64,000 bases of DNA. Source: an uncultured Gammaproteobacteria bacterium. Lineage in GTDB: Bacteria > Patescibacteriota > Patescibacteriia > Patescibacteriales > JAGXOH01. Below, one piece after another: positions 1,336 through 48,880 of this stretch. The notes beneath the pieces were generated by a model. That model was not told where the DNA came from, did not search any database, and worked only from the letters and a program-made list of their open reading frames with translations. The DNA lies in contig CAZXUK010000001.1 of the NCBI GenBank assembly GCA_964644045.1, forward strand, positions 5,401-69,400, given 5' to 3'. The position numbers were made by a program, and so were the translations under genes. Each line of letters opens with the position of its first letter. Within the stretch, counting starts at the first letter, position 1.

Positions 1336-2409
1336 TTACTTTAGTTCTTTTTTAAACCAATCCACCCAAGGGATTTGAGAAGGATTTACATTATTCAGGA
1401 TACCCAAATAAAAAGACAACCAAGAGCCGAATTGTAAGACCCGAGCACACTGATTTAGGCGAGATCCTTTTTCTGTTTTATAATCCAAAACTTTAATTCC
1501 GTTTTTCTTTGCTACTTGTTTGGTTAGCTCGCTTCTTTTTTGCACCCGAGGATGATATTTGTCCGAGTCCAAAAATAAAAACACTAAATTCTTCTTGTTG
1601 GCTACGGGATGAGAAAGACTTTCCAATAAATAATGGTTAAGCTCGGGCAAACTTAGGTAATCGGCAAAATTTTTGGAATTCTCGCAAAACTGATTACGCA
1701 GAGTGTGAAGATTGCCTTCTAAAAATTCCGCTCCCACTAAAATAGGGATTTTGCCTTTCAACTCTTGAGCTATTTTTTTAGCCGGATTTTTTTGGCTCTC
1801 GCTCTCAGGACGAAAAATAAAATTATCATCCCGCAACTTTTTGATTATAGACTCCGCTTCTTTTTCATCTAAATTCAGCAGTCCCGCTTTTTCCAAGAGA
1901 ATTAAGAGTCCGAAAATGGAATAGCCCAAACCGATCCTGGGCTGTTCTGAGGGATTATGCAGAGGTTTAAAAATAAATCCGGGAATATTGTCTTTGATCA
2001 TTAATTTCTCCAACTTATTTTTTTCGTGACTGGAAGTAATGCCCATGATCTTGGCTCCGCTTTTTTTTACTTTTTCATAAACACTTAAAGGCTCCTCGGT
2101 ATTACCGGAATAAGAAGAGATAATATACAAGGTCTTCCGGTCTACATAACCGGGCACTTCATATCCCGGAACTATATCCAGGGGAGCTTTAAGCTTATCA
2201 GCCAAACAAGCTTTAATGATCCTCCCTCCCAAATTAGACCCCCCCATGCCGTTCAAAACGATTTTTCTAACTTGGGTGTGTCCTTCGGGAATTCGGACTA
2301 AAGGCGCATCTTCTCTGACTTGTCTGATCTGCTCCGGCAGTAAACCGATTGATTCAGCCACCAGACCCGGATCCATTTTATAAATTTTTTTAGTATTGTC
2401 TAAATTCAT
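1336..2409 (-). CDS. bifunctional phosphoglucose/phosphomannose isomerase family protein (SIS domain)
   Basis: GMGGSNLGGRII and ISSYSGNTEE SIS motifs. The ORF is open to 2469, but the ATG at 2409 (MNLDNTKK) sits directly after a 5' leader motif shared with rdgB. Confidence 0.7.
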   Translation of the reverse strand: MNLDNTKKIYKMDPGLVAESIGLLPEQIRQVREDAPLVRIPEGHTQVRKIVLNGMGGSNLGGRIIKACLADKLKAPLDIVPGYEVPGYVDRKTLYIISSYSGNTEEPLSVYEKVKKSGAKIMGITSSHEKNKLEKLMIKDNIPGFIFKPLHNPSEQPRIGLGYSIFGLLILLEKAGLLNLDEKEAESIIKKLRDDNFIFRPESESQKNPAKKIAQELKGKIPILVGAEFLEGNLHTLRNQFCENSKNFADYLSLPELNHYLLESLSHPVANKKNLVFLFLDSDKYHPRVQKRSELTKQVAKKNGIKVLDYKTEKGSRLNQCARVLQFGSWLSFYLGILNNVNPSQIPWVDWFKKELK

Positions 2410-2572
2410 AGGTTTAATTACAAATTCACAAATCTTGTCACACCTGTCCACCTTGGGCGGAAATATCACAAATTTGTTTTTACATTTTATAATATTAGTT
2501 TAGCAAAAGGTAATTATAATTTCAATTGATCTCTGACTTTGCTTTAAAAAGAAAAAGTGCTAAAATAATAAT

Positions 2573-2812
2573 ATGAAAGATTTAATAAAAACAACTAACA
2601 AAAAAATCAACGGCCTGATTTTAACCCTGTCCGCCACCGGACTGTTTTTGGTTATTCTGGCAATTCTGATTATTGTTACCCAATTCCTCCTGCGCTGGCT
2701 GGTAGGAATAGTTATTCTGGCCATTGCTTTCAGTTTTTTTTATTCCGCCTACCGCATCTGCAGTTTAAAAAAGGAGGCTAAGGAATTCTTGAAAAAATGG
2801 GGTATAAAATAA
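2573..2812 (+). CDS. small hypothetical membrane protein (2 predicted TM helices)
   Basis: 79-aa ORF with two hydrophobic stretches. No recognisable family. Confidence 0.4.
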   Translation: MKDLIKTTNKKINGLILTLSATGLFLVILAILIIVTQFLLRWLVGIVILAIAFSFFYSAYRICSLKKEAKEFLKKWGIK

Positions 2813-2941
2813 ACTCTTTAAAAAGCAGAATATCATTTATATTTTTAACAGCGAACAAGATTCTATAGCTGTTTAAAAAAATAATCTGGTGATTTTTATT
2901 TAAATTTAGAGCATAATCAATGTACAAGTCCATGAACATAA

Positions 2942-2970
2942 TTGACACTTATTAAAGTTTTCTGTACTAT
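2942..2970 (+). promoter_or_regulatory. sigma-70-type promoter for the glyQS leader
   Basis: TTGACA, 17-nt spacer, TACTAT. Confidence 0.5.
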
Positions 2971-2974
2971 TTTA

Positions 2975-3190
2975 ATAAAGGGAGATTGGCACCCTTTAGG
3001 ACAATTAAATAATTAAGGTGGTTTCGCCAAAGGTATGGGCTGATATTGTTTAATCTTTAGGATTAACCGGGCAAGCCCGCCTTCTCCGCCAATCAGCGGA
3101 TTCGGCGAGACAAAGCTAGATGGAACCGCGGGGAAAATCTCGTTCTAGCAATCTAAAAAATTTTGGATTGCGGGAACGGGATTTTTTTAA
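2975..3190 (+). promoter_or_regulatory. T-box leader (glycine-type) with terminator, upstream of glyQS
   Basis: AGATGGAACCGCGG resembles the T-box core (GGGTGGTACCGCG). Its UGGA fits the UCCA end of tRNA-Gly. An imperfect hairpin ATCTCGTTCTAGCAATC...GGATTGCGGGAACGGGAT plus a T-run follows. Confidence 0.55.
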
Positions 3191-3372
3191 ATTTAAAAAC
3201 TTTTTTTAAAAAATGAATTACCAACCTTTGGCCTGATTAGCGCGACTTAAGGGAACAATCACCCTCAGGATCAACCCCGCAAGGTAATAAACCGTAAATC
3301 AAATTAAACTAACAAACCCCGTCCATCTCCTCTCCTTGATAAGTGGAGGATCAAGAAGGGGTTCTCCTAAAT

Positions 3373-4752
3373 ATGTCTAAACAAAACGAAAACTCTAATA
3401 AAATGGAAAAGATTATTTCCCTTTGCAAAAGACGGGGCTTTCTTTTTCCTGCTTCGGAGATCTACGGCGGTCTGGCTAACTCCTATAGTTACGGACCTTA
3501 CGGAGTGGAATTAAAGAACAATCTTAAACAACTCTGGTGGAAAAAATTCGTTAGCGAGAGAAGTGACGTCGTGGGTATAGACGGCCCCATTCTGCTTCAC
3601 CCCAAAATGTGGGAAGCTTCCGGTCACACCACCGGCTTTAATGACGCTTTAGTGGATTGTAAAAAATGCAAGAAAAGATTTCGGGCCGATCATTTGGTGG
3701 AAGAGGTAACCGGAGAAGACTTGGAAGGGGAAAATAAAAAAATGGAAAAGGCTATTAAGGAAAATAAAATCAAATGCCCGGAGTGCGGCGATTTTGATTG
3801 GAGCGAGGTTAAAAAATTCAATCTTATGTTTCAAACCGAGATGAACGGAATTGAAGAACCGATTTACTTCAGACCGGAGACAGCCGGAGCTATTTTTATT
3901 GAATTTAAAAATATATTGGATTCCATGAGGGTAAAATTGCCTTTTGGAGTCGCTCAAATCGGCAAGGCCTTCCGCAACGAAATCGTAGCCGGAAATTTTA
4001 TCTTTCGCCTAAGAGAATTTGAACAAATGGAAATTGAATATTTTATTCATCCGAAGACTAAATGGGAACCGATTTTTAAAAATTGGCTTGAACTTATGGA
4101 AGAATTTGTCCAGGAAGCGGGGGTAGAAAAAAAAGATTTAAAACGCAACGAACATCCACCGGAAAAACTCTCTCACTATTCCCGAAAAACCGTGGATATA
4201 GAGTATAAATTCCCTTTTGGATTTAAAGAGCTTTATGGTCTTGCTCACCGCGGTGATTTTGATTTAAGTCAACACTCCAAATATTCCCGGGAGAACCTGG
4301 AATATTATGACCCGGAAACCAAGGAAAAAGTGGTTCCCCATGTACTTGAACCTTCTTTTGGTTTGGATAGAACCATTCTGGCAACCCTACTGGCCGCCTA
4401 TAAAGAAGAAAAAGTGGAAAAAGAAACCAGGATAGTAATGAAATTTCCCAAAAAAATCGCGCCTATTAAAATCGCGATCTTCCCGCTTCTGAAAAACAAA
4501 CCCGAATTGGTTAAAAAATCTCAAGAGATTTTTGAGAATCTAAAATATAACTACACTTGCGAATACGACGAAGTAGGCAGTATTGGCAAAAGATACCGCC
4601 GCCAAGATGAGGTGGGGACACCTTATTGTATAACCGTGGATTTTGATACCCTGGAAAAAGATAATACCGTAACTGTCCGCGACCGAGACAGCATGAAACA
4701 AGTTAGGATAAAAATTGAAGAACTGGAAAACTATTTTGCCGAAAAACTATAA
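3373..4752 (+). CDS. glyQS: glycine--tRNA ligase (class II, dimeric GlyRS)
   Basis: KRRGFLFPASEIYGGL, FRNEI and the C-terminal anticodon-binding region are typical. The start is uncertain: GTG 3343, ATG 3373 or ATG 3403. Confidence 0.9.
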   Translation: MSKQNENSNKMEKIISLCKRRGFLFPASEIYGGLANSYSYGPYGVELKNNLKQLWWKKFVSERSDVVGIDGPILLHPKMWEASGHTTGFNDALVDCKKCKKRFRADHLVEEVTGEDLEGENKKMEKAIKENKIKCPECGDFDWSEVKKFNLMFQTEMNGIEEPIYFRPETAGAIFIEFKNILDSMRVKLPFGVAQIGKAFRNEIVAGNFIFRLREFEQMEIEYFIHPKTKWEPIFKNWLELMEEFVQEAGVEKKDLKRNEHPPEKLSHYSRKTVDIEYKFPFGFKELYGLAHRGDFDLSQHSKYSRENLEYYDPETKEKVVPHVLEPSFGLDRTILATLLAAYKEEKVEKETRIVMKFPKKIAPIKIAIFPLLKNKPELVKKSQEIFENLKYNYTCEYDEVGSIGKRYRRQDEVGTPYCITVDFDTLEKDNTVTVRDRDSMKQVRIKIEELENYFAEKL

Positions 4753-4761
4753 AACAAATTT

Positions 4762-4796
4762 AAAAGGCCGTTTCTTTTTTAGAAACGGCCTTTTTT
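4762..4796. terminator. bidirectional intrinsic terminator between convergent glyQS and 4836-5471
   Basis: AAAAGGCCGTTTCT-loop-AGAAACGGCCTTTT, flanked by A/T runs. Confidence 0.7.
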
Positions 4797-4835
4797 GGAA
4801 AAATATCCTAAGTCAAGCTATGAAAAAAATCTGGC

Positions 4836-5471
4836 TTAATTTTGAAACATAGGACAATTACCACAACCCAAGCTTTTGTCTTTCATTGCCTTGCCTTTTC
4901 TTTCTTTGCTCATACCCAAGCTATCTTTAATTTTGCTCGCTTTCTCAAAATTACCTTCCTGTCTCAAATTATGAACTTCTACCAACTTTTCAAAATCTTC
5001 TTGAGATAAACCCTGAACAAACGGGCGGTCTGATTTTAAATTTTTCCAAGATTCATAATCACCGGTTTCCAGGGCCTGCCACATTTTTTCTCTGGTTTCC
5101 GAATCCACACCTTTACCGTTTTTATAGAGTCCTCCTCTTTGAAAACCTTGATTAAGCCCCAGCTCTTCCCGGATTTCGCGAGCGCCTTCCAGGTCGCCTT
5201 GCTCGACCAGCTTATGCGCCTGAGCGAATTTGGCAAAATTTTCCTCTGTAACCACCTCGGCAACTCTACCTCGGTCTCCCATTAACTCTTCCCAGGCCCG
5301 GTAATTACCCTCCTCCAAAGAGGTTTCCATGGCTTTATGTCTTTCCGGGGAATAATTCGGCCCCTGAACTTCGGGATTCCCTTGGTAGGCATAACTGGCT
5401 CCGGCGATTCCGACTACGGCGATTAAAGCCACTAAGGCAGCCGCGCCGGTAATCATTTTTGAATTTGTCAT
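4836..5471 (-). CDS. secreted or membrane-anchored protein with two internal repeats and a C-terminal CxxC
   Basis: N-terminal hydrophobic anchor. Two copies of a ~70-aa module (E.G.Y..W..L...R...V..E.F.K......L...G..E.A..I...LG). The protein ends in GCGNCP. Confidence 0.5.
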   Translation of the reverse strand: MTNSKMITGAAALVALIAVVGIAGASYAYQGNPEVQGPNYSPERHKAMETSLEEGNYRAWEELMGDRGRVAEVVTEENFAKFAQAHKLVEQGDLEGAREIREELGLNQGFQRGGLYKNGKGVDSETREKMWQALETGDYESWKNLKSDRPFVQGLSQEDFEKLVEVHNLRQEGNFEKASKIKDSLGMSKERKGKAMKDKSLGCGNCPMFQN

Positions 5472-5574
5472 ATTTTTATAATTAGTTATTAATCTATTTA
5501 CCCGGGATATTTTAGGCCTTCTAATCTTTATTACGCCGGACAGTCTTAATTTCTTTCACGGCCAAAAATTTTTT

Positions 5575-6318
5575 CTATCGAAAAGACTTAAAACTCCCGG
5601 AACGATGCTCGGATTTAAAAGCAGGGGCGGTTTTAAAAAGTTTAATGTCCCTGGCCTGAAAACAATCCTTGCCTGTTTTTCCTATTATTTTAACCGAATT
5701 ATTAAAACCTTCTTGAATATGCGGGCATTGGGAAAGTTGGGGACATTCCACACACCAATTTTTATTATTAAAATCAAGTAAATAAAATTTTTGCGGGCTT
5801 TCCACTTCCAAAACCCTGCCGGCTAAAAGTCCTTTTTGGGGACGATTCCACATTTTACATCTGCGCTCCAAGGTTTCTTTGTAAAAAGGGATTTTCCGGC
5901 TAAAAACATTATTTATAGGCTCGCTTAAGCCCGCCGCATACAAGCCACCGCCCAGAAAAACACTGATCAATAAACTTAAAACCAAAATTTTTCCCAGACT
6001 CAATAAATATCCTTTTTTGGTATGTTTTAAATTGTAATAAGCCGAAACAATAAAAAAAGCCAAAATTATCAGCCAAAAATAGGGAAGAGTGGCCAAAAGA
6101 AAGCCTGAGAAATTCCCGGAAACATACTGATATAAATCCCAATCATTATTAACCACCATATGAAAGATTACCGAAACCGCCAGACCTCCGATAATCAAAG
6201 AAATTCCGAACAAAGTCCAAACGGTATAATCCTTAAGCAAAAACTCCCATCTGGGCCTGGGCTTGAGATGATCCTCTTTAATTTTCCGAAAAATTTTTTC
6301 ACTGATTTTTTTGGTCAT
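5575..6318 (-). CDS. multi-pass membrane protein, candidate anti-sigma factor
   Basis: Lies immediately downstream of the ECF sigma gene (gap of a few nt). It has 4 hydrophobic helices and a Cys-rich C-terminal domain. Confidence 0.4.
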   Translation of the reverse strand: MTKKISEKIFRKIKEDHLKPRPRWEFLLKDYTVWTLFGISLIIGGLAVSVIFHMVVNNDWDLYQYVSGNFSGFLLATLPYFWLIILAFFIVSAYYNLKHTKKGYLLSLGKILVLSLLISVFLGGGLYAAGLSEPINNVFSRKIPFYKETLERRCKMWNRPQKGLLAGRVLEVESPQKFYLLDFNNKNWCVECPQLSQCPHIQEGFNNSVKIIGKTGKDCFQARDIKLFKTAPAFKSEHRSGSFKSFR

Positions 6319-6322
6319 ATTT

Positions 6323-6910
6323 TTAAAATTTCATTTTCATATCCCGGGCTTGTTCCCAAAAATTATTTCTTCCTCTTTTTAGTAGAGTGGCGACAGTTCC
6401 CAAGGGCTTTTTTAAAATATCCGCTATTTCCTTATAATCCTTCCCTTCTAAATATTTCAAAACCAAAACTTCCCGGTATTTATTATCTAATCGCTTTAAA
6501 ACCTTATCAATATTTTCTTTAAGAAATTTATAGTCCAATTCCCCGGCCAAATCCAATTCAGACTTCAATCTGTTTAAAAGTTTTTCATTTTCTTCCGCTC
6601 CCAATCCGTTGTAATAAACTTTATTTTTACGAAAATGACTGAAGGTTTCATTTCTCGTAATTCGGTAAATCCAAGCGGAAAAACTCAAACTCTTGTCAAA
6701 AGAGGCCAAGTTGCGGAAAACTTTTATAAAAACTTCCTGCAAAACATCCTCGGCTTCATCCCGATTAATGTGGGAAATCTTGGTAATAAAATTCAACAAG
6801 CGATTTTCATACCTTTCCATTAAATAAAAGAAGTAGTCCTCGTTCTTCAGGCTTAAACGAACCAAACTACTGTCATCCCGTTCACGGCATTTTTGAGGAG
6901 TTTTCTCCAT
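6323..6910 (-). CDS. RNA polymerase sigma-70 family, ECF-type sigma factor
   Basis: Region 2 (DAEDVLQEVFIKVF...WIYRITRN) and region 4 (EVLVLKYLEGKDYKEIADILKKPLGTV) are recognisable. Confidence 0.85.
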   Translation of the reverse strand: MEKTPQKCRERDDSSLVRLSLKNEDYFFYLMERYENRLLNFITKISHINRDEAEDVLQEVFIKVFRNLASFDKSLSFSAWIYRITRNETFSHFRKNKVYYNGLGAEENEKLLNRLKSELDLAGELDYKFLKENIDKVLKRLDNKYREVLVLKYLEGKDYKEIADILKKPLGTVATLLKRGRNNFWEQARDMKMKF

Positions 6911-8197: not shown

Positions 8198-8614
8198 TTA
8201 TTTTCTGTTTTTTTCTATAATAACCCTCCAGGAATCCTTGGTTCCTTTAATGGGGATTTTTCTGAAACTACCCAAGTCCAATAAATGACGATCGCTGGAA
8301 ACTATTAGATCCGCTCCTCCCGCCCAAGCGCACGCCAAGAATTTATCATCTTCCGGGTCTTCCGCGATAACCCGCAAGCGGGGAGGATTTTTTATCTTAT
8401 TTTTTTCTTTAAAAATTTTGTTCCACTCCAATTTCTTTCGATTGGCTGAACGACTAATATTGCTCAGAATATACTCGGCTTCTTTTTTAATAGCGTCACT
8501 CCATAATATTTCGATCTCTCCTTGCCGGGATAAATTAATTATTCGAGCGGCAAAACTTTTTTTATTAAAAAGGTGGGCAACCAAAAGATTGGTATCTATT
8601 ACTATCTTAAGCAT
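8198..8614 (-). CDS. PIN-domain protein (putative toxin-type ribonuclease)
   Basis: IVIDTNLLV start, acidic residues, SSDRHLL near the C-terminus. Confidence 0.75.
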   Translation of the reverse strand: MLKIVIDTNLLVAHLFNKKSFAARIINLSRQGEIEILWSDAIKKEAEYILSNISRSANRKKLEWNKIFKEKNKIKNPPRLRVIAEDPEDDKFLACAWAGGADLIVSSDRHLLDLGSFRKIPIKGTKDSWRVIIEKNRK

Positions 8615-8618
8615 TGTT

Positions 8619-9650
8619 TTAAACTCTTAAAAGAAATAAATCCAGATCAACTCGCGAATCACTTTGACCGGATTTCCAAAGATAATCCATTTCCACTAAA
8701 GAATTGAGGGATCTTTTTAATTTAATTAAACTAAATTTTCTTGCTTGATTAATGCCCTTTTGAACCACAAAGGGGTGAAGGCCCAGACTGCTGATCATTT
8801 TACGAGAGCTTTCTCCTTCGTCTAAACATTGTCGGATTTGCAAGAGTATTTTGATCTGCCGAGTGATCATATTAAGAAGATAATATTCATTAACTCCGGC
8901 TGAATATTGTTTTTCCAATAAATTAACTGCCAAAGAATAATTTTGATTACTAATAGCGTCGGTTAGGGCAAAAATATCCTGATCAAACAGGCCCTCCACC
9001 AACTCTTCCACCTCTTCGGGTTCTACTGTTTGGCCGGCATCAGCTCCCTGGCCTTTTTTATAATAAATCAATTTGTTTATTTCTTGGTTCAATTGCCATA
9101 AATTATTACCCACCAAGCTAATCAAAAGCTCGCAAGCTTTAGTGCTTATTTCTCCTCCTCGAGATTTAAACTCTTCCCGAACCCATTTATTAAGCTCGGT
9201 ATTGGACAAAAGAAAAAATTCCTGACTGAATTTTTGCGAATTCAAAAATTCAAACCAAGCCCGCGCCTTTTTGCTCAAAGGTTTTTCTCTGCCCACGGAA
9301 TCGATCATCAATATTTCGGTTTTAGCTCCTTTTCTTTTGCTTTTGATCCGCGGCTCCCAAAAAATTACGGTATTATCGGTCTCTTCTTTTTGAGTACGAA
9401 AATATTCGGAAAGCTCTGAAAGCTGAGGATTTTGAAAAGTATTTTTCAAAACAATCATTCTTTTATTTCCGGAACTAAAAAGAGAGGAGGCGCTGATTTT
9501 TTCCTTTATTTCGGATAAGTCGGCTTCAGAACCATCCAAAAAACTGATACTATCCTCGCCTCCGCCGATCTGGGTTAAAAATCTTTTTTTTAGCTCTTGG
9601 ATCTTTCGATTGGCCCGAAAAGTATCCTCGCCGTAAAAAAATATAAACAT
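8619..9650 (-). CDS. holA: DNA polymerase III subunit delta
   Basis: MFIFFYGEDTFR N-terminus and a length and helical C-terminal domain typical of HolA. Confidence 0.75.
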   Translation of the reverse strand: MFIFFYGEDTFRANRKIQELKKRFLTQIGGGEDSISFLDGSEADLSEIKEKISASSLFSSGNKRMIVLKNTFQNPQLSELSEYFRTQKEETDNTVIFWEPRIKSKRKGAKTEILMIDSVGREKPLSKKARAWFEFLNSQKFSQEFFLLSNTELNKWVREEFKSRGGEISTKACELLISLVGNNLWQLNQEINKLIYYKKGQGADAGQTVEPEEVEELVEGLFDQDIFALTDAISNQNYSLAVNLLEKQYSAGVNEYYLLNMITRQIKILLQIRQCLDEGESSRKMISSLGLHPFVVQKGINQARKFSLIKLKRSLNSLVEMDYLWKSGQSDSRVDLDLFLLRV

Positions 9651-9855
9651 TTGATGTTTTTTATTAATTGTTATTTTAAACTTGAAATACTCGGGTCTTA
9701 TTGACTACCGGGCCTCACTATTACCGGACATAAAATTATAATTAAAGTATAACAGCAAACCGCCCCGCGAATCAACAAATATAAATCTACAAATAATTTC
9801 CTGTTGGTCTTTTATACCAAATTTGTTAAAATAAACATATACTTAAACTCATTTT

Positions 9856-11022
9856 ATGAATATTTTTTTATTCTTAAGCACGATTTTTTTATTGACTTTT
9901 ATAATTGGTAAAGGCATAGAAAAAATCCGGGTTCCCTGGATTTTTGCCGCCCTAATTTTGGGCGCTTTGGCAGCTGTTTACAACCCTTTTCAAAGCTTAA
10001 CTGATTCTGACTCTTTTGAGTTTTTAGCTGAACTGGGAATGTATTTCCTGCTTTTTATGATCGGGCTGGATATAAACCTCACTAAACTCAAGAAAAAAAG
10101 CGGTTTTATATTTCGAGCCACTTTTTTTATTATTTTCCTAGAAGCTATCCTGGGAAGCACTCTTATTCATTTTTTATTCGGATACGGATGGGGTGTCTCT
10201 TCTTTAGTGGCCCTTTCTTTTGCCACAGTGGGGGAAGCTATTTTGATTCCCATCCTGGATGAATTTAAAATAACCAAAACCAAGCTGGGCCAATCAATTA
10301 TCAGCATCGGGGCTCTGGACGATATTATTGAAATCTCGGTTTTAATTACGGTAATAATAGTGATCGGAGGCACAAGCGGAAGCAGTTTTAATGCTGCCGG
10401 TATGGCTTTATCCTTGATTCTCTTGCTAATCTTGGCTTTACTTTTGGTTAATTTTAAAAAAAGCAAGGAATATTTTAAATTTTTTAATATAAAAACCTTG
10501 TTCCTCTTTACGGTTTTTATCTTCTTTTTATTTATAGGGATCGGAAGCTATGCCGAGGCCGGGGCACTGGGCGCTTTGCTGGCCGGAATCAGTATTAAAA
10601 ATCTCTTGCCGGCTAAAAAACTAAAAATGATTGAAACCGAGATCAAAACTTTGAGCTACGGCCTGTTCGCCCCGATTTTCTTTTTTTGGGTGGGCCTGGA
10701 AATGGATATGGGCTACCTGGCAACCGCGCCCCTGATTGTTTTAGCTTTGGTTTTAGTCACTAAAGGAGCTAAAATTTTGGGAAGCTTGATTGTGGGTAAA
10801 AAAGAATTGGGATTAAAAAGGTCCATACTTCTGGGAATCGGCTTATCCGTCCGCTTTAGCACAAGTATTATTATCATAAAAATACTTTTTAATAATAATA
10901 TTATAGACACTCAGCTTTACTCCGTGATCATTGCTTCCAGTATTGTTTTTAAATTCATAGTTCCCCTTCTTTTTGCCAATCTTTTGGTGCGCTGGGAAAT
11001 AAAAAAACCCAAAACCGCTTAA
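9856..11022 (+). CDS. cation:proton antiporter (CPA family, Na+/H+ exchanger-like)
   Basis: About 12 hydrophobic helices and a DD pair in ALDDIIEI. Confidence 0.7.
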   Translation: MNIFLFLSTIFLLTFIIGKGIEKIRVPWIFAALILGALAAVYNPFQSLTDSDSFEFLAELGMYFLLFMIGLDINLTKLKKKSGFIFRATFFIIFLEAILGSTLIHFLFGYGWGVSSLVALSFATVGEAILIPILDEFKITKTKLGQSIISIGALDDIIEISVLITVIIVIGGTSGSSFNAAGMALSLILLLILALLLVNFKKSKEYFKFFNIKTLFLFTVFIFFLFIGIGSYAEAGALGALLAGISIKNLLPAKKLKMIETEIKTLSYGLFAPIFFFWVGLEMDMGYLATAPLIVLALVLVTKGAKILGSLIVGKKELGLKRSILLGIGLSVRFSTSIIIIKILFNNNIIDTQLYSVIIASSIVFKFIVPLLFANLLVRWEIKKPKTA

Positions 11023-11035
11023 TATTAAATTATTT

Positions 11036-13519
11036 ATGACTCAAAAAATAAAAGGACTTAGTTCAAAAGAAGCCCAAAAAAGATTAGATCAATACGGTCC
11101 CAATAAAATCAAAAGGACTCAAAAAATAAATCCTATTAAAATTTTAATTTCTCAATTCAAATCCCCTTTGATCATTATTTTGATCATAGCCGCGATTATT
11201 TCTTTTTTGGTTAACTATTATCAAGGCGAAAATTATGTGGATTCGACCTTAATTGTGATCATAGTTTTAGCTTCCGGGGTCGCCGGATTTATTCAGGATT
11301 ACAAAGCGGAAAAAGCGATCGAGGCCTTGAAAAAAATGGCCACCCCCAAAGCCAAAGTTATTCGGGGGGGAAAAGAAAGAGAGGTCAAGGCCTGGCAGAT
11401 CGTGCCCGGGGATATAATCGTTTTGGAGGGCGGAGATGTAATCCCGGCTGATGCCAAAATCCTAAAAGGAAAAGCGGAAATCAATGAATCGGTCCTGACC
11501 GGAGAATCCAAAGCCGTACACAAACAAAAAGATAAATATATCTATTCCAGTTGCAGTGTTTTGTCCGGAAGGTTAAAGGCCGAGGTTCACGCCACGGGTA
11601 TGAAAACTAAAGTGGGGAGAATTGCGGAGAAAATGCAGAATATTCAAGAAGAAAAAACCCCTTTTCAAAAACACATGCACAAGTTCAGCAATAAATTGGT
11701 AGTGGGGACCGGGTTTATTATTCTTTTAACTTTTTTAGCCGGCTTTGCCAAATTCGGCTGGCTGCAAACCGGTTTAATCGCGGTGTCTTTGGCTGTGGCC
11801 GCCATACCCGAAGGTCTCCCCGCGGTTATCACCCTGGCTCTTTCCTTGGGGGCTAAAAGTATGGTGGCCCGCAACGCCCTGATCCGAAAACTGGCCACCA
11901 CCGAATCCATCGGCAGCATCAACACCATCTGCACCGACAAAACCGGCACTCTTACTCAAGGAAATATGAAAGTTAAGAATATTTGGAGTAACGAGCATAA
12001 TAATGCGATTAAAAATATTTCCTACCAATGCGCTTATTACTGCAATGATGCCAAACAAATTTACAAAGAAGGAGAAAAAAAATGGGTGGGGGATGAAACC
12101 GAGATCGCTTTAAAACAATACGCTCAAAAAGAAATAAAAAAAGAGGGTCAAAGAAACGGAGAGATATCTTTTACCAGTAAAAGAAAAATGATGACCGTGA
12201 TGCAGACCCTGGACAAAAACAAATGGATCTTCTCCAAAGGGGCTCCGGAGGTCATAATCGAAAAATGCGATAAAGTGGCCACTCCCGGGGGAAACAAAAA
12301 ATTAAGCCAAACCGAAAAAGAAAAAATTTTGAAAAAAAACAAAAAACTGGCCTCCCAGAGTTATCGCGTCTTGGCTTTAGCTTATAAAAAAAGCGGAAAA
12401 TTAACTGAAGATAACCTAATTTTTATCTCCTTAATTTATCTTAACGATCCGGTGCGCAAAGAAGCTAAAAAATCGGTTAAGGAGTGCCAAAATGCCGGAA
12501 TCAGAACCATTATGATAACCGGAGACAATCCCTTAACCGCCCAATCCATAGCCCGAAAAGTGGGGATAACAAGTCCGGAAGTCTATATCGGCGAAGACTT
12601 GGAGAAATTAAAAGGGGCTGAAATTGATAAACTTTTAGCCAAAGGCAATAACATTTTCGCCCGCACCTCTCCTTTTCATAAATTAAAGCTCTTAACTTCC
12701 TTACAAAACCAGGGCCAAGTAGTGGCCATGACCGGAGACGGAGTAAATGACGCTCTGGCCCTGAAAAAATCAGATGTAGGGGTGGCTATGGGCACTAAAG
12801 GCACCGAAGTTTCCAAACAAGCCAGTGATATAATCCTTTTGGACGACAATTTCGCCACTATTAGAAACGCCATCCAGGAGGGCAGGCGAATTTTTGATAA
12901 TATCCGCAAATTCGTAAATTATCTGTTAACCTGTAATCTGGCCGAAGTTTTAGTAATATTGGTAGCCACTTTAACTCTTCCCTTTGTGGCCTTATTCCCG
13001 GTACAGATCTTATGGATCAATTTGATCACAGACGGCTTAGTGGCCCTGGCTCTTTCTGTGGATCCGGCTCGTCCGGATGTTATGTCACGCCAACCCCGGA
13101 ACTCCCGAGAAGGGATTATAAACAAAGAGTTGGGTATCTTAATAATCAGCAACGGCCTCTTGATGTCCGTAATCCTACTGGCAATCTTTTTCCTTACCCT
13201 GAACTTGAATTGGGGGCAGGAAAAAACGCGAACCATAATTTTTACCGGCTTTATCTTATTTGAATTTGTTCGTTTAGGAGTAATCAAATACAACGAACAT
13301 CTTCATTCCTTAAAAGACTGGGTCGCCAATAAGTTCCTGGTTTTATCTTTACTTCTTTCTTTGGGCTTACAACTTCTCATAATTTATACTCCTCTGGCCC
13401 ATTATTTTAAGATCGTGGCCCTGGGGTGGTTGGAATGGGCGACTTTAATAGGTTTTACCGTAATCGGTTTTATTTTGGGAATTATTACTACCAAAATAGT
13501 TCATAAATTTATTAAATAA
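11036..13519 (+). CDS. cation-transporting P-type ATPase (type II, Ca2+/Na+-like)
   Basis: TGES, CTDKTGTLT, MITGDN and TGDGVNDA motifs. Confidence 0.9.
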   Translation: MTQKIKGLSSKEAQKRLDQYGPNKIKRTQKINPIKILISQFKSPLIIILIIAAIISFLVNYYQGENYVDSTLIVIIVLASGVAGFIQDYKAEKAIEALKKMATPKAKVIRGGKEREVKAWQIVPGDIIVLEGGDVIPADAKILKGKAEINESVLTGESKAVHKQKDKYIYSSCSVLSGRLKAEVHATGMKTKVGRIAEKMQNIQEEKTPFQKHMHKFSNKLVVGTGFIILLTFLAGFAKFGWLQTGLIAVSLAVAAIPEGLPAVITLALSLGAKSMVARNALIRKLATTESIGSINTICTDKTGTLTQGNMKVKNIWSNEHNNAIKNISYQCAYYCNDAKQIYKEGEKKWVGDETEIALKQYAQKEIKKEGQRNGEISFTSKRKMMTVMQTLDKNKWIFSKGAPEVIIEKCDKVATPGGNKKLSQTEKEKILKKNKKLASQSYRVLALAYKKSGKLTEDNLIFISLIYLNDPVRKEAKKSVKECQNAGIRTIMITGDNPLTAQSIARKVGITSPEVYIGEDLEKLKGAEIDKLLAKGNNIFARTSPFHKLKLLTSLQNQGQVVAMTGDGVNDALALKKSDVGVAMGTKGTEVSKQASDIILLDDNFATIRNAIQEGRRIFDNIRKFVNYLLTCNLAEVLVILVATLTLPFVALFPVQILWINLITDGLVALALSVDPARPDVMSRQPRNSREGIINKELGILIISNGLLMSVILLAIFFLTLNLNWGQEKTRTIIFTGFILFEFVRLGVIKYNEHLHSLKDWVANKFLVLSLLLSLGLQLLIIYTPLAHYFKIVALGWLEWATLIGFTVIGFILGIITTKIVHKFIK

Positions 13520-13559
13520 CTAATCCGCCAAAAAGTGTGTACTAAAACAAAAAAAGCTC

Positions 13560-13587
13560 TTGACAAAATTTCTAAATATGTTATTAT
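13560..13587 (+). promoter_or_regulatory. sigma-70-type promoter of the GC-rich RNA unit
   Basis: TTGACA, 16-nt spacer, TATTAT. Confidence 0.55.
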
Positions 13588-13607
13588 ATTTTTTGTTCTT
13601 TTCATTT

Positions 13608-13655
13608 GAGGAATTTGGCTAAGGCATAGGGTCTTAGTTTAAATCCTCATTTTTT
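13608..13655 (+). promoter_or_regulatory. leader hairpin with U-run (attenuator-like) at the 5' end of the GC-rich unit
   Basis: GAGGA/TCCTC outer stem, CTAAG/CTTAG inner stem, then ATTTTTT. Confidence 0.35.
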
Positions 13656-14250
13656 AATACCTTTTTTGCCTAAGGAGGCGCCCATGATTATCAGAGGACC
13701 GTGTGAAACCGCAAAGACATTAAAGAATTTTGACGGCACCATCACCCGCCCGGCCTATCGCCACGGCCCGGTGCTTGCCAAGGGCAACACCATGGCCATT
13801 GCAAGCGCCGGCACCCATTGACGGAGACGCCCATGATTCAAATCATCGGAACCGGGGAAACCTGGGTTTCAGGATTTATCTGACCGGACTAATACCGGTC
13901 TGGCATCCTCCCAAAGGCACTGAGAGCCGGCGTAGACGCCATCGATCAGCCCGAATAATCCCCCCTGAAAAAACGCGCGCGCAAAATCGGGGGAATCGCG
14001 GGTATCGCAAGGCAATATCGGCGACCGGGTAACCGCAAGTGGCCACGAAAAAGTTCGCCGCGCGGACTACACCCACACGCCCATCACAGCAGCCGGACAC
14101 ACCGGGAGGATGCCTTTTCTTCAGGCAAAAAGGCCGGACACCGGGGAAAAATGTTTACCCCCGGACAAAAACCGGCCAGGCGAATTGAGGGGCACAGACC
14201 AAGTCTGGGCCACCCAAAGCGCCGAAAAAAAACAAAAAACAAAATCAACC

Positions 14251-14282
14251 GAGGTTGTCATCAATGACAACCTCTTTTTTTT
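14251..14282 (+). terminator. intrinsic terminator of the GC-rich unit
   Basis: GAGGTTGTCA-tcaa-TGACAACCTC (10-bp perfect stem) followed by 8 T. Confidence 0.8.
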
Positions 14283-14329
14283 ATTCTTAAAAAATTAAGA
14301 ATATATATTCGAATATATATTCTTTTTAA

Positions 14330-14480
14330 AAACCAACTTCCTACCCTGCCCTAAAAACTAATATCTAATTTCTAATTTCTAATCCCTAATCTCTAAAACC
14401 CTAAAAACTAACCCCTAATACCTAATCCCTAATCTCTAAAACCCTAAAAACTAATCCTTAAAACCTAACACCTAACCTCC
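14330..14480. repeat. G-depleted CTAA/CCTAA-rich low-complexity tract
   Basis: About 150 nt built from CTAA, CCCTAA and CTAAAA units with almost no G on the + strand. A block of about 60 nt is repeated internally (CCTAATCCCTAATCTCTAAAACCCTAAAAACTAA). Confidence 0.8.
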
Positions 14481-14509
14481 TTGCTTCCTAAGCAAATTTC
14501 CTGTATAAT
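14481..14509 (+). promoter_or_regulatory. putative uvrA promoter
   Basis: TTGCTT, 17-nt spacer, TATAAT, about 35 nt upstream of the uvrA ATG. Confidence 0.45.
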
Positions 14510-14542
14510 TATTTTCTAATTAACATACTTAACAAACTAAAA

Positions 14543-17404
14543 ATGGCTAATCAAAACAACTCCAAAATCAAAATTAAAGGAGCCCGGGTTCATAATTTAA
14601 AAAACATTGACGTGGAGCTTCCCCGCCAAAAAATGGTGGTCCTAACCGGACTTTCCGGTTCGGGCAAATCCAGCCTGGCTTTTGACACTCTTTATGCCGA
14701 AGGCCAAAGAAGGTATGTGGAATCCTTGTCCGCCTATGCCCGTCAATTTATCGGAGTAATGGATAAGCCGGATGTAGACTCTATTGAAGGCCTTTCCCCG
14801 GCCATCTCTATTGACCAGAAATCAACCACTCATAATCCCCGCTCTACAGTGGGCACGGTTACGGAAATTTATGATTATCTTCGCCTTCTTTTTGCCCGCA
14901 TCGGAATTCCGCACTGTCCTAAGTGCGGGAAAAAAATTAAACAATATTCTGTAGATGAAATTGCGGATAAAATTTTGGAAAAATATCCGGGGGAGGAAAT
15001 TCTCATTCTGGCTCCCTTGGTGCGAGACAAAAAAGGAGAACATAAAAATATCTTGGACAATGTAGCCCAAGCCGGTTACTCCCGCATCCGCTTTGATAAA
15101 AAAATTTATACCCTGGAGGAAGCTAAGGAACAAGAAGTAAATAAACAAAAAAAACACAGCTTAGAAGTGATTGTAGATAAAATTAAAATCAATACTGACA
15201 AGGAAGATGTCTCCCGCCTGAGCGAAGCGGTAGAAAAAGCCTTGGAGCTCTCCGGGGGCTTAATATCTTCGGCTCCGGCAGAAAACAAAAAAGGAGAAGA
15301 AAAACTTTTTTCCCAAGAATTTGCCTGCCCGGATTGTGATATCAGCTTACCACAACTTGAGCCCAGACATTTTTCTTTTAATTCTCCGCACGGAGCTTGT
15401 CCCAAATGTACGGGGTTGGGAACCAAACTGGAAATGGATCCGAAGATCATTCTTAATCCCAAACTGACTATTGCCCAAGGAGGAATCAAGCCCATCTCTC
15501 ATAATCTTTCCGGACAAACTTGGATACTCCGAATCCTGGGAACCGTAGCCGGAGAACACGGCTTTGATCTCAATACTCCTATCAAAGACTTAAGCCGGGA
15601 ACAACTTAATGTGATCTTATACGGCTCTAAAGACAAAACCTATAATATTGAGTATGATGGAGAAAAATTAAGCGGGGAATTCACCACCAATTTTGAAGGT
15701 ATTATTCCCAATCTGGAAAGGCGATATTGGCAGACCGAATCCGAATATATCCGCAAAGAAATAGGCAAGTATATGAGGGAATTCAAATGTCCGGCTTGCA
15801 AGGGCAAAAGATTAAAACCGGAAATTTTAGGAGTAAAAATAGATGGCTTATCAATTTATGATATTTCTTCCCGAGATATCACCAAAATCAAAAAATTTTT
15901 CCTGAATTTGGAAAAAGGAAAAAAACTAAACGCCAAAAACAAAAAAATATCTTCTCAGATCATTAAAGAAATCAAATCCCGCCTGGATTTTCTCCTTAAT
16001 GTGGGCTTGGACTATTTAACTTTAGACAGAGCGGCCAAAAGTTTATCCGGAGGGGAGGCGCAAAGAATCAGACTGGCAACCCAAATCGGTTCAGCCCTGA
16101 CCGGAGTTTTGTATATTTTGGATGAGCCCTCCATAGGTCTTCACCAAAGAGATATTGATAAACTTATAAAAACTTTAAAAAACCTTAAAAAATTAGGCAA
16201 TACCGTGGTGGTGGTAGAACATGACGAAAATATCATCACCTCCTCGGACTGGATTGCGGATATTGGTCCCGGGGCCGGAGAACACGGAGGTAAACTGGTG
16301 GCTGCCGGTACCCCGGCTCATATCAAAAAAAATACTAAATCCTTAACCGGCCAATATTTATCCGGCAAAAAATCCATCCCTGTTCCCAAAAAATTCCGCA
16401 CGGGAAACGGCCAAACCCTGTCCATTATTAACGCCCGTGAACATAATTTGAAAAATATTAATGTTGATTTTCCTTTGGGGAGATTCATATCCTTAACCGG
16501 AGTTTCCGGTTCAGGCAAATCCACTTTAATGAGCGATATCCTGGCCCGCGCTCTGGCGCAAAAATTTTATAGAGCCAAAAACGAGCCCGGAGCCCATGAC
16601 CGCATTGAAGGTTTAAGATATATAGATAAAATTATTGACATAGACCAATCTCCCATCGGCCGGACTCCCCGCTCCAACCCGGCCACCTATACCGGCGCTT
16701 TTACTCCTATTCGCGAACTATTTGCCTCTACTCCGGAAGCCAAGATCAGGGGCTACAAACCTGGGCGCTTCTCTTTTAATGTGGTGGGCGGAAGATGCGA
16801 GGCCTGCCGGGGAGACGGAATGATAAAAATAGAAATGCAATTTTTACCCGATGTTTACGTGGATTGCGAAGTCTGCCATGGAAAACGCTACAATAAAGAA
16901 GCTTTGGAAATAACTTATAAAGGCAAAAACATTGCCGATGTTCTGGAAATGACAGTGGAAGAGGGTTTGGATTTTTTTGAAAACATTCCGGCGGTGGAAC
17001 AAAAACTAAAACTGCTCCAAGAAGTGGGCCTGGGCTACATTCGCCTGGGTCAATCGGCCACCACCTTGTCCGGAGGAGAAGCGCAAAGAATCAAGTTAGC
17101 CACAGAGCTGGCTCGCAGATCCACGGGCAGAACTTTCTATATTTTGGACGAGCCCACCACCGGTCTTCATTTTGCCGATATTAAAAACCTCTTGGCTGTC
17201 TTAAACAAATTAGTGGATAAAGGCAATACCGTACTTATAATCGAACACAATTTGGATGTGATCAAATCAGCTGATTGGCTGATTGATCTGGGGCCTGAAG
17301 GAGGAGACAAAGGAGGAAAAATTGTCGCCCAAGGAACTCCTAAACAAGTAGCTGATATCAAGAAAAGTTATACCGGACAATATTTAAAGGGAATATTTGA
17401 TTAG
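14543..17404 (+). CDS. uvrA: excinuclease ABC subunit A
   Basis: Two ABC modules ([24 protein letters not shown]), zinc-finger cysteines, 953 aa. Confidence 0.95.
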
Positions 17405-24725: not shown

Positions 24726-24776
24726 TGTATCTAAACAACCTAAAACCTAATCCCTAAAACCTAATCCCTAATCCCT
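24726..24776. repeat. G-less CCTAA/CTAAAA tract (same family as 14330-14480)
   Basis: CTAAACAACCTAAAACCTAATCCCTAAAACCTAATCCCTAATCCCTA. Confidence 0.7.
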
Positions 24777-48819: not shown

Positions 48820-48880
48820 TTTTTACTATTAAAAATAAATCAACACCTAAAACCCAAAAACTAACACCTAAGACCTGTTA

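Follow-up and report, generated by a model that had tools for sequence, protein, structure and literature searches.

A lineage-restricted, GC-rich transcription unit in a Patescibacteria genome as a candidate structured RNA carrying small open reading frames

The 64-kb stretch of DNA analysed here (contig CAZXUK010000001.1, positions 5,401 to 69,400, hereafter the window) contains, between the genes for a P-type ATPase and UvrA, a discrete promoter-to-terminator unit on the + strand that is GC-rich and U-poor in an otherwise AT-rich Patescibacteria genome. This unit is best called an orphan structured RNA carrying small open reading frames (ORFs), one that is absent from RNA databases. The reading that we favour, with a probability of roughly 0.45, is that it specifies a lineage-restricted, independently transcribed bipartite RNA, in which a small-ORF mRNA is joined to a structured 3′ domain that evolves fast and probably acts in cis. 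The evidence for this comes from the anatomy of the unit, the homology of its 5′ half with the corresponding unit of a second species, the coding-type pattern of substitution in the second of two short ORFs, the folding excess in its 3′ region and its restriction to a narrow range of hosts. An earlier note on this DNA had proposed a large structured RNA of unknown class; its structured character is upheld by our analysis, which finds no Rfam family for it, but the proposed likeness to the OLE, GOLLD and ROOL RNAs is not, since the large domain is unalignable between the two species that carry it and the distribution is narrow.

The boundaries of the unit are those drawn in the earlier note. 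Promoter scanning located a sigma-70-type promoter, TTGACA-16-(TG)TATTAT, on the + strand at 13560..13587 (11 of 12 matches, together with the TG extension), from which transcription would start at about position 13594. An intrinsic terminator on the same strand at 14251..14282 was recovered by a terminator scan and consists of a 10 to 11-bp stem with a 4-nt loop (stem-loop 14251-14274) followed by T8. Together these signals delimit a unit of ~690 nt (~13594-14282, + strand), and the promoter, the T tract of the terminator, a strong skew of A over T and the conserved ribosome-binding sites all point to the + strand. The terminator scan detected no terminator-like site between the stop codon of the ATPase gene (13519) and the promoter, and the terminator at 14251-14282 probably also ends the upstream P-type ATPase transcript. 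A recount of the sharp contrast in composition reported previously gave exactly the same figures, with 40/60 G+C at 13741-13800 versus 13/60 at 13561-13620. The GC content is 0.56-0.61 throughout 13700-14200, compared with a mean of 0.383 for the 64-kb window (sd 0.064, 200-nt windows), and 13700-14250 is the sole sustained island of >54% GC within it. No second copy of the unit, and no template/variable repeat of the kind found in diversity-generating retroelements, was found within the window.

Only one homologue of the unit was found. It lies on the contigs designated L009 and L010, at the same site between the P-type ATPase gene and uvrA, in a species whose UvrA is 85% identical to that of the window and which is the closest UvrA relative having a contig on record. 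The gene order in L009 is the same (holA, Na+/H+ exchanger, P-type ATPase, a 1.39-kb spacer and uvrA), and the spacer carries promoter blocks identical to those of the window, CTCTTGACAAAAT and TGTTATTATA, at the same 16-nt spacing, followed by AAGGAGG-5 nt-ATG with a 52-codon ORF, GGGAGG-5 nt-ATG with a 16-codon ORF, ~250 nt of GC-rich DNA and a terminator. When the terminator stems are compared by eye, two positions are changed on both arms with the pairs kept (GAGGTTGTCA.. in the window, GGGGTCGTCA.. in L009). The only homology that nhmmer detects starts at the promoter and stops where ORF2 ends (window 13546-13888, E ~1e-6), and none was detected between the two species over the GC-rich 3′ domain; the flanking genes share 75-79% DNA identity. 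Despite their unalignable sequences, the two 3′ domains (250-370 nt) have both kept a GC content of 0.54-0.60 in genomes of 38-40% GC. Since the GC richness, and the folding excess described below, have been kept in two lineages beyond the reach of alignment, the target of selection appears to be fold or composition and not sequence.

The 5′ part of the unit contains two short ORFs, each preceded by a Shine-Dalgarno (SD) sequence and beginning with ATG, which keep their positions in L009 and which the earlier note, in finding no credible gene, had overlooked. The first SD, AAGGAGG (13672..13678, + strand), lies 5 nt ahead of the ATG of ORF1, an arrangement that is the same in L009. ORF1 itself (13684..13821, + strand; 45 codons, MIIRGPCETAK...SAGTH) is called as a gene by several pipelines. 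The second SD, GGAG (13823..13826, + strand), lies 6 nt ahead of the ATG of ORF2, compared with GGGAGG at 5 nt in L009, and ORF2 (13833..13883, + strand; 16 codons plus TGA, MIQIIGTGETWVSGFI) is the best-conserved block of the unit. The host uses such strong SD-ATG sites for real genes, with roughly one in two AGGAGG-N3-9-ATG sites of the window heading a real long ORF.

The substitution pattern of ORF2 looks like that of a coding sequence. The two species agree in the length of its predicted peptide (MIQIIGTGETWVSGFI in the window, MIEIIGSGIPWVSGGD in L009) and in its stop codon, the SD is in place in each, and 10/16 residues are identical. The proportion of synonymous differences (pS, 0.59) exceeds that of nonsynonymous differences (pN, 0.26) in its own frame only, the other two frames being reversed, and at least 10/16 identical residues without a stop were reached in 0.6% of random placements of the same number of differences (P ~0.006). 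By contrast, ORF1 appears to evolve neutrally, with no constraint on its amino acid sequence: its product is not conserved, being 29% identical to that of the 52-aa L009 ORF1, pS and pN hardly differ (0.55 and 0.52) and the differences are spread over the three codon positions as 22/25/24. Searches with ORF1, made singly against 5.8 billion proteins, as a two-sequence profile and by phmmer against 1.84 billion representatives, returned only ORF1 itself, its L009 counterpart and repeat or low-complexity noise. If ORF1 is translated, we infer that the act of translation matters rather than the product. In this respect, its stop codon lies 11 nt ahead of the ORF2 AUG in the window and 27 nt ahead in L009, and this AUG is held inside a predicted stem, a layout that would suit translational coupling.

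The longer ORFs to which the earlier note had drawn attention (13730-14032 and 14110-14298 on the + strand, 13876-14100 on the − strand) do exist, and neither they nor any other ORF of the island, in any frame, matched Pfam or NCBIfam. We considered the 100-aa frame at 13730-14032 as a gene, as it gives the best translated match to L009, yet L009 has no ORF in that frame, and the match is therefore explained by conservation of the DNA surrounding ORF2. Neither 3-periodicity nor an ORF common to the window and L009 was detected in the 3′ domain. Codon-like conservation, which the earlier note had said would speak against a structured RNA, was thus found in ORF2 only, and the 3′ domain remains a noncoding structured segment.

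Folding analysis likewise divides the unit into two parts. The high self-complementarity noticed previously is borne out by comparison with shuffled sequences, the folding energy of 13595-14282 giving z = −6.46 for the + strand and −5.18 for the − strand, and the whole-transcript value for the L009 unit is −7.7. The 3′ domain accounts for nearly all of this excess, with z = −6.06 in the window (13881-14250) and −5.08 in L009 (9186-9440), as opposed to −1.74 and −2.54, respectively, for the 5′ parts that bear the ORFs. All of the helices listed in the earlier note are present. One predicted element is a multibranch domain (13902..14114, + strand; minimum free energy (MFE) and centroid structures, inverted repeat) closed by an 11-bp helix, GGCAUCCUCCC / GGGAGGAUGCC, the DNA arms of which are GGCATCCTCCC (13902-13912) and GGGAGGATGCC (14104-14114). 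A perfect inverted repeat of 11 bp was reached in 14/300 dinucleotide shuffles and is therefore, on its own, only mildly unusual. Within this closing helix, an anti-SD-like CCUCC pairs with an SD-like GGAGG, and in L009 an 11-bp helix, UUCAAGCCUCU/AGAGGCUUGAA, is stacked on CCUCC/GGAGG, starting 2 nt past the ORF2 stop. Both 3′ domains hence place CCUCC 2-24 nt past the ORF2 stop and its paired GGAGG 150-200 nt downstream, in or on an 11-bp helix that closes a multibranch loop; GC-rich hairpins follow, then an A/U-rich strand that pairs back to the 5′ leader, and last the terminator. The T content of the 3′ domains is 12% and 20%, compared with 29% on the + strand of the whole window. The sole strain-level change inside the element, 14105 G>T on contig L029, breaks a G-C pair of the 11-bp closing helix and is uncompensated; it is known from one contig and could be an error.

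The remaining predicted helices connect the two ends of the transcript or lie along its length, all on the + strand. A U-rich 5′ arm (13589..13603) and a partner within 14224-14245, in the A-rich tail (14224..14250), form a closing helix in the MFE structure that is also an inverted repeat. An equivalent with another sequence is found in L009 (8876-8892 / 9410-9426, 17 nt, 88% complementarity), in which the arms are reversed in composition, A-rich at the 5′ end and U-rich at the 3′ end. The 5′ hairpin P1 (13607..13649, predicted fold) has a TGAGG...CCTCA base and an inner stem-loop at 13617-13640; the pairs of this base recur unchanged in L009, with GTGCC-TTA-GGCGC as the interior. In the predicted fold, a pyrimidine tract upstream of the first SD pairs with it. 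Two small hairpins are predicted within ORF2 (13833..13883), ATGAT-TCAA-ATCAT, which sequesters the start codon, and CCTG-GGTTT-CAGG, and a third, GACCGG-ACUAAUA-CCGGUC (13882..13900), overlaps its stop codon. Beyond the multibranch domain lie the nested hairpin GGCCGG..CCGGGG..CCCCGG..CCGGCC (14132..14177, predicted fold and sequence check) and the predicted hairpin GGCG...CAGAC-CAA-GUCUG...CGCC (14179..14223, with CAGAC/GTCTG at 14195-14207). Units of the form CCGG-(A/C-rich 3-7 nt)-CCGG recur four times within 13884-14166, with starts at 13884, 14093, 14134 and 14161, CCGGAC occurring four times where we estimate ~0.3 from composition; L009 has a single GGCCGG-ACUAGA-CCGGCC. These units may represent a repeated protein-binding hairpin or may simply be a by-product of GC-rich helices.

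From these features, a bipartite mode of action can be proposed. The 5′ third would behave like a small mRNA, led by the protective 5′ hairpin, followed by the SD-led, 45-codon ORF1, which would be free to drift as a coupling leader, and then, 11 nt past its stop, by the SD-led ORF2, encoding the putative conserved micro-peptide, with its start codon in the small hairpin. Ribosomes on ORF1 might open this hairpin, so that ORF2 would be translated by coupling; both the translation of the ORFs and the coupling are predicted from sequence. From the ORF2 stop codon onwards, the 3′ half (13884-14250) would form a GC-rich, U-poor and densely paired noncoding domain, closed by the 11-bp CCUCC/GGAGG helix, tied to the 5′ end by the closing helix and finished by the strong terminator. 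This domain would be kept structured and GC-rich without its sequence being kept, and would act in cis, as a stabilising and/or translation-sensitive fold that might refold at the ORF2 stop, rather than as a conserved catalytic or scaffold RNA.

The main rival, in line with the proposal of the earlier note, is that the whole ~650-690-nt molecule functions as a purely noncoding structured RNA of a new, narrow class, acting as a regulator, sponge or ribonucleoprotein scaffold, in which case the SD-like and AUG-containing blocks would be structural elements or would bind a ligand or the ribosome. We hold this to be possible, but less likely than the bipartite reading. It would account for the whole-transcript folding excess in both species (z = −6.5 and −7.7), for the retention with altered sequence of the 5′-3′ closing helix, the long-range 11-bp helix and the terminator, for a U-poor, A/C-rich composition unlike the rest of the genome, for the neutral evolution of ORF1 and for the recurrence of the CCGG units, of which the window has four and L009 one. 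It would also fit the distribution of changes in the ORF2 block, where all differences from L009 lie in loops or linkers and the stems of both small hairpins are invariant. On the other hand, the largest and most structured part of the unit is the least conserved in sequence, and the block that is conserved best consists of a perfect SD-ATG-16-codon-stop unit in which synonymous changes are in excess. Moreover, no Rfam family resembles the unit, it is known from two species only and the conservation of helices rests on two sequences and predicted folds, RNAalifold having no statistical power on such a pair.

Several points weigh against the bipartite reading itself. Because every difference in the ORF2 block lies outside the hairpin stems, RNA constraint could mimic part of the coding signal, and the conservation pattern of ORF2 could stem from RNA structure alone. 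The ORF2 peptide, if made, is a 16-residue, non-hydrophobic product without recognisable function or family, and the openness of ORF1 is weak evidence, as we estimate that 45 stop-free codons would be expected about 1 time in 4 in this U-poor composition. Only two species-level sequences are at hand, which leaves tests of coding selection and covariation without real power, and only inference speaks for a role of the 3′ domain in cis.

A third explanation is that the unit is a module resembling type I toxin-antitoxin systems of the hok kind, in which ORF2 (or ORF1) would encode a harmful peptide and the mRNA would be kept inert by fold-back and sequestered initiation, translation occurring only through coupling or after processing. 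The predicted fold lends itself to this idea, with a 5′-3′ fold-back and sequestered initiation regions in both homologues, the first SD being predicted to pair with the upstream pyrimidine tract and the ORF2 AUG lying in a stem. In the mok/hok layout a leader ORF is combined with a short ORF, and the arrangement seen here resembles it; the presence or absence of the unit among close relatives and the variable holA-uvrA interval would also suit such a module. However, neither peptide is hydrophobic or membrane-spanning, ORF2 specifying 16 aa including Glu and ORF1 45 polar and unconserved aa. In addition, a consensus scan found no promoter-like site on the − strand of 13588-14282, the sole nearby one being at 14329-14300, past the terminator, although a scan of this kind could miss one, and the unit is single-copy within the window. 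We therefore judge a toxin module improbable.

Still less probable, in our estimation, is that the unit is what remains of GC-rich DNA acquired by horizontal transfer, a gene fragment in decay that is transcribed by chance and has no function. Its composition is foreign to the genome and the 3′ two-thirds of ORF1 have a GC content at third codon positions (GC3) of ~0.8, as would be typical of a coding sequence with high GC content. ORF2 starts with IIGxGxxW, which may bear a faint likeness to a Rossmann N-terminus, and the unit is absent from the next relatives. Nevertheless, the GC richness and folding excess persist in both diverged lineages, which AT-biased decay would not yield and which argues against a decaying foreign fragment, and the promoter, both SDs, ORF2 and the terminator are conserved. 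Furthermore, no frame has a Pfam or NCBIfam match, a blastn search of the unit against phage and plasmid collections gave no match and the 3′ domain lacks 3-periodicity. A mobile element was considered as well, but this idea is not supported: no target duplication was seen, and the only arrays in the window are CTAANNN repeats in the same orientation, which are found in other intergenic regions too.

The GC island might also have arisen by misassembly, with DNA of a GC-rich organism joined into a contig of a bacterium of the candidate phyla radiation (CPR). The earlier note had raised such a chimera as a possibility, and the positions at which other assemblies break could be read in its favour, since L006, L007 and L008 start at 14153, 14281 and 14320, and L030 and L031 end at 14306 and 14200, in or just past the unit. 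These breaks, three contig starts and two ends from five independent assemblies within 14153-14320, could be caused by the palindrome described below, by repeats or by an effect of coverage or GC content. We compared the 1.1-kb stretch 13450-14560, or the part of it covered, with contigs from JGI (3300007628, 3300026197 and 3300009061), ENA (ERZ27257085, ERZ27257105 and ERZ27257089) and Logan (SRR5468419), and identity was 99.9-100% with both junctions included. Contigs from at least five samples and assemblers span both junctions with identical sequence, and the flanking ATPase and UvrA proteins are found on contigs of several independent JGI, ENA, NCBI and Logan assemblies. Because independent contigs agree across both junctions, a chimera is refuted; the homologous unit at the same site of another species also speaks against it, and we place its probability close to zero. 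The UvrA relatives are annotated as Patescibacteria, and the host is therefore a CPR bacterium. Over all assemblies, only two strain-level single-nucleotide polymorphisms were seen, 14105 G>T and 14351 C>A, which are uninformative on compensatory change.

The unit is narrowly distributed, being confined to two related species. Searches for homologues, as the earlier note had recommended, yielded L009/L010 and no further copies in pattern scans. In L012 (UvrA 76%), the ATPase and uvrA genes adjoin via a 228-nt spacer with a simple terminator and the unit is absent; in L025, holA lies directly beside uvrA and the unit is absent from the site; and in other UvrA relatives (73-76% identity) the regions upstream of uvrA are short or non-syntenic and the unit is absent there. 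We rejected L011 as a syntenic relative, as its upstream gene looks by eye like uvrB and has no match to the ATPase. L011 encodes at 1874-6520 a UvrA of 1548 aa with duplicated UvrA_inter and UvrA_DNA-bind domains, directly downstream of this uvrB-like gene (by eye), and its UvrA search score is nearly equal to that of the 85% relative. Scans with a degenerate pattern of the ORF2 block over 185,579 species genomes, JGI metagenomes and IMG/VR found only unrelated sequence. The matches in genomes and metagenomes were all antisense to an unrelated gene, a nucleotidyl-transferase by eye, and the viral scans gave zero matches or unrelated sequence alike in pattern only. The JGI metagenome scan missed the JGI contigs of the window itself, so that collection is evidently incomplete and absence from it is weak evidence.

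The genes around the unit are holA, the Na+/H+ exchanger and P-type ATPase genes, uvrA and genes for a PEBP protein and a Memo-AMMECR1 protein. The interval between holA and uvrA (window 8619-14543) varies among relatives and looks like an insertion hotspot: in the window and L009 it holds the exchanger, the ATPase and the GC-rich unit, in L025 holA abuts uvrA and in L012 there are two extra genes besides the exchanger and the ATPase. Just past the terminator, ~220 nt upstream of uvrA, the window contains a perfect 28-nt palindrome (14297-14324), made up of two tandem copies of GAATATATATTC, which was not seen in L009. It resembles the LexA (Cheo) box of Gram-positive bacteria, GAAC-N4-GTTC, apart from C>T and G>A changes that are placed symmetrically, and on this likeness could be an SOS operator for uvrA. 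Further on, at 14351-14475, an array of 17 CTAANNN heptamer units, including CCCTAAA-like ones, lies beside the element. Similar arrays are found at 24740-24771 and ~48847-48876, in intergenic regions just past terminators, and the arrays are a genome-wide intergenic repeat family outside the element. In L009, 53-nt imperfect inverted repeats of AGCTNNN heptamers (8601-8653 and 9814-9866, cores 94% complementary) bracket the whole ATPase-uvrA spacer, that is, the element and ~340 nt more, in a layout like that of miniature inverted-repeat transposable elements; no target duplication was seen for these repeats and no counterpart in the window. A second element in L009 at ~9665-9816, with long inverted-repeat arms AATCGCGGGCAGGGAAAATTTTGGATCACGAGC ... 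GCTCGTGATTTTTCCAAAATTTTCCAATGCCCGC by eye, lies between the terminator and uvrA and is absent from the window.

The CPR/Patescibacteria are uncultivated bacteria with tiny genomes and few recognisable regulators, in which regulatory RNA and micro-peptides are little known. If the bipartite reading is true, the unit would provide this group with a concrete case of a dual-function RNA that lends itself to testing, with a tail of 250-370 nt in which selection appears to maintain GC content and fold rather than sequence. We think it unlikely, if worth stating, that the unit represents an undescribed Patescibacteria class of ~0.65-0.7-kb RNA, either a translation-coupled riboregulator, in which translation of the conserved 16-codon ORF, ending at the foot of the multibranch domain closed by CCUCC/GGAGG, would remodel the rapidly evolving 3′ domain, or a new noncoding RNA conserved in fold and not in sequence. 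The restriction to two species limits its general importance. The unit also offers a caution for screens based on GC islands, as the island is real, structured and absent from Rfam, yet its conserved core lies in tiny ORFs.

Comparison with known RNAs places the unit outside the described families. Rfam 15, run on the whole window at gathering score, returned four tRNAs only, and at E ≤ 10 the regions 13400-14600 of the window and 8600-10000 of L009 gave noise only, with no family common to both. The covariance model of OLE had no match at gathering score or E ≤ 10 in the window or L009, those of GOLLD, ROOL, HEARO and raiA had none at E ≤ 10 in the two regions, and no match was obtained with the models of RNase P RNA, tmRNA, SRP RNA and 6S RNA. 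ARAGORN found four tRNAs and no tmRNA. The earlier note had likewise seen no RNase P, tmRNA or SRP signatures. The unit resembles OLE, GOLLD, ROOL, HEARO and raiA in size class (~0.6-0.7 kb), in standing out as a GC-rich island from AT-rich surroundings, and in having multibranch folds and a marked folding excess. However, OLE, GOLLD and ROOL are widely distributed families with conserved cores, whereas the unit, which has one homologue, lacks a conserved core and supported covariation, its 3′ domain being unalignable at 85% UvrA identity; it also carries conserved SD-led ORFs and is extremely narrow in distribution. OLE is found in Firmicutes that are extremophilic or anaerobic, together with ole-associated protein genes such as oapA, whereas the host here belongs to the Patescibacteria and the neighbours include no ole-associated genes; none of the genes known to accompany these families adjoins the unit.

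Smaller RNAs of other kinds come closer. Like small RNAs of the DapZ/MicL type, which derive from 3′ untranslated regions, the unit has its own internal promoter, shares the operon terminator and lies directly past a gene, that of the P-type ATPase, which has no terminator of its own, but it is ~10 times longer than is typical, carries ORFs and has no Hfq-type seed or target known. The hok/mok mRNAs are matched by the predicted 5′-3′ fold-back, the structured initiation regions, the upstream ORF placed to couple into a short downstream ORF and the patchy presence among relatives; they differ in that the peptides of the unit lack the character of hydrophobic membrane toxins, that the promoter scan gives no evidence of an antisense RNA gene and that the 3′ domain is much larger and GC-rich. 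From the dual-function RNAs RNAIII, SgrS/SgrT and SR1/SR1P, the unit is set apart by the lack of any sequence or Rfam relationship, by its two tandem ORFs, by a structured part that evolves faster than the ORF part and by its Patescibacteria host lineage with two carrier species, and no base-pairing targets are known for it. Nonetheless, as in Staphylococcus RNAIII, which is 514 nt long and encodes the 26-aa delta-haemolysin, and in SgrS/SgrT and SR1/SR1P, an independent unit of several hundred nt with its own promoter and terminator is predicted to carry a very short, SD-led ORF within a highly structured RNA, the distant parts of which are linked by long-range helices. By analogy, the unit would work most like dual-function RNAs of the RNAIII, SgrS and SR1 kind and partly like the hok mRNAs, while being a member of none of them.

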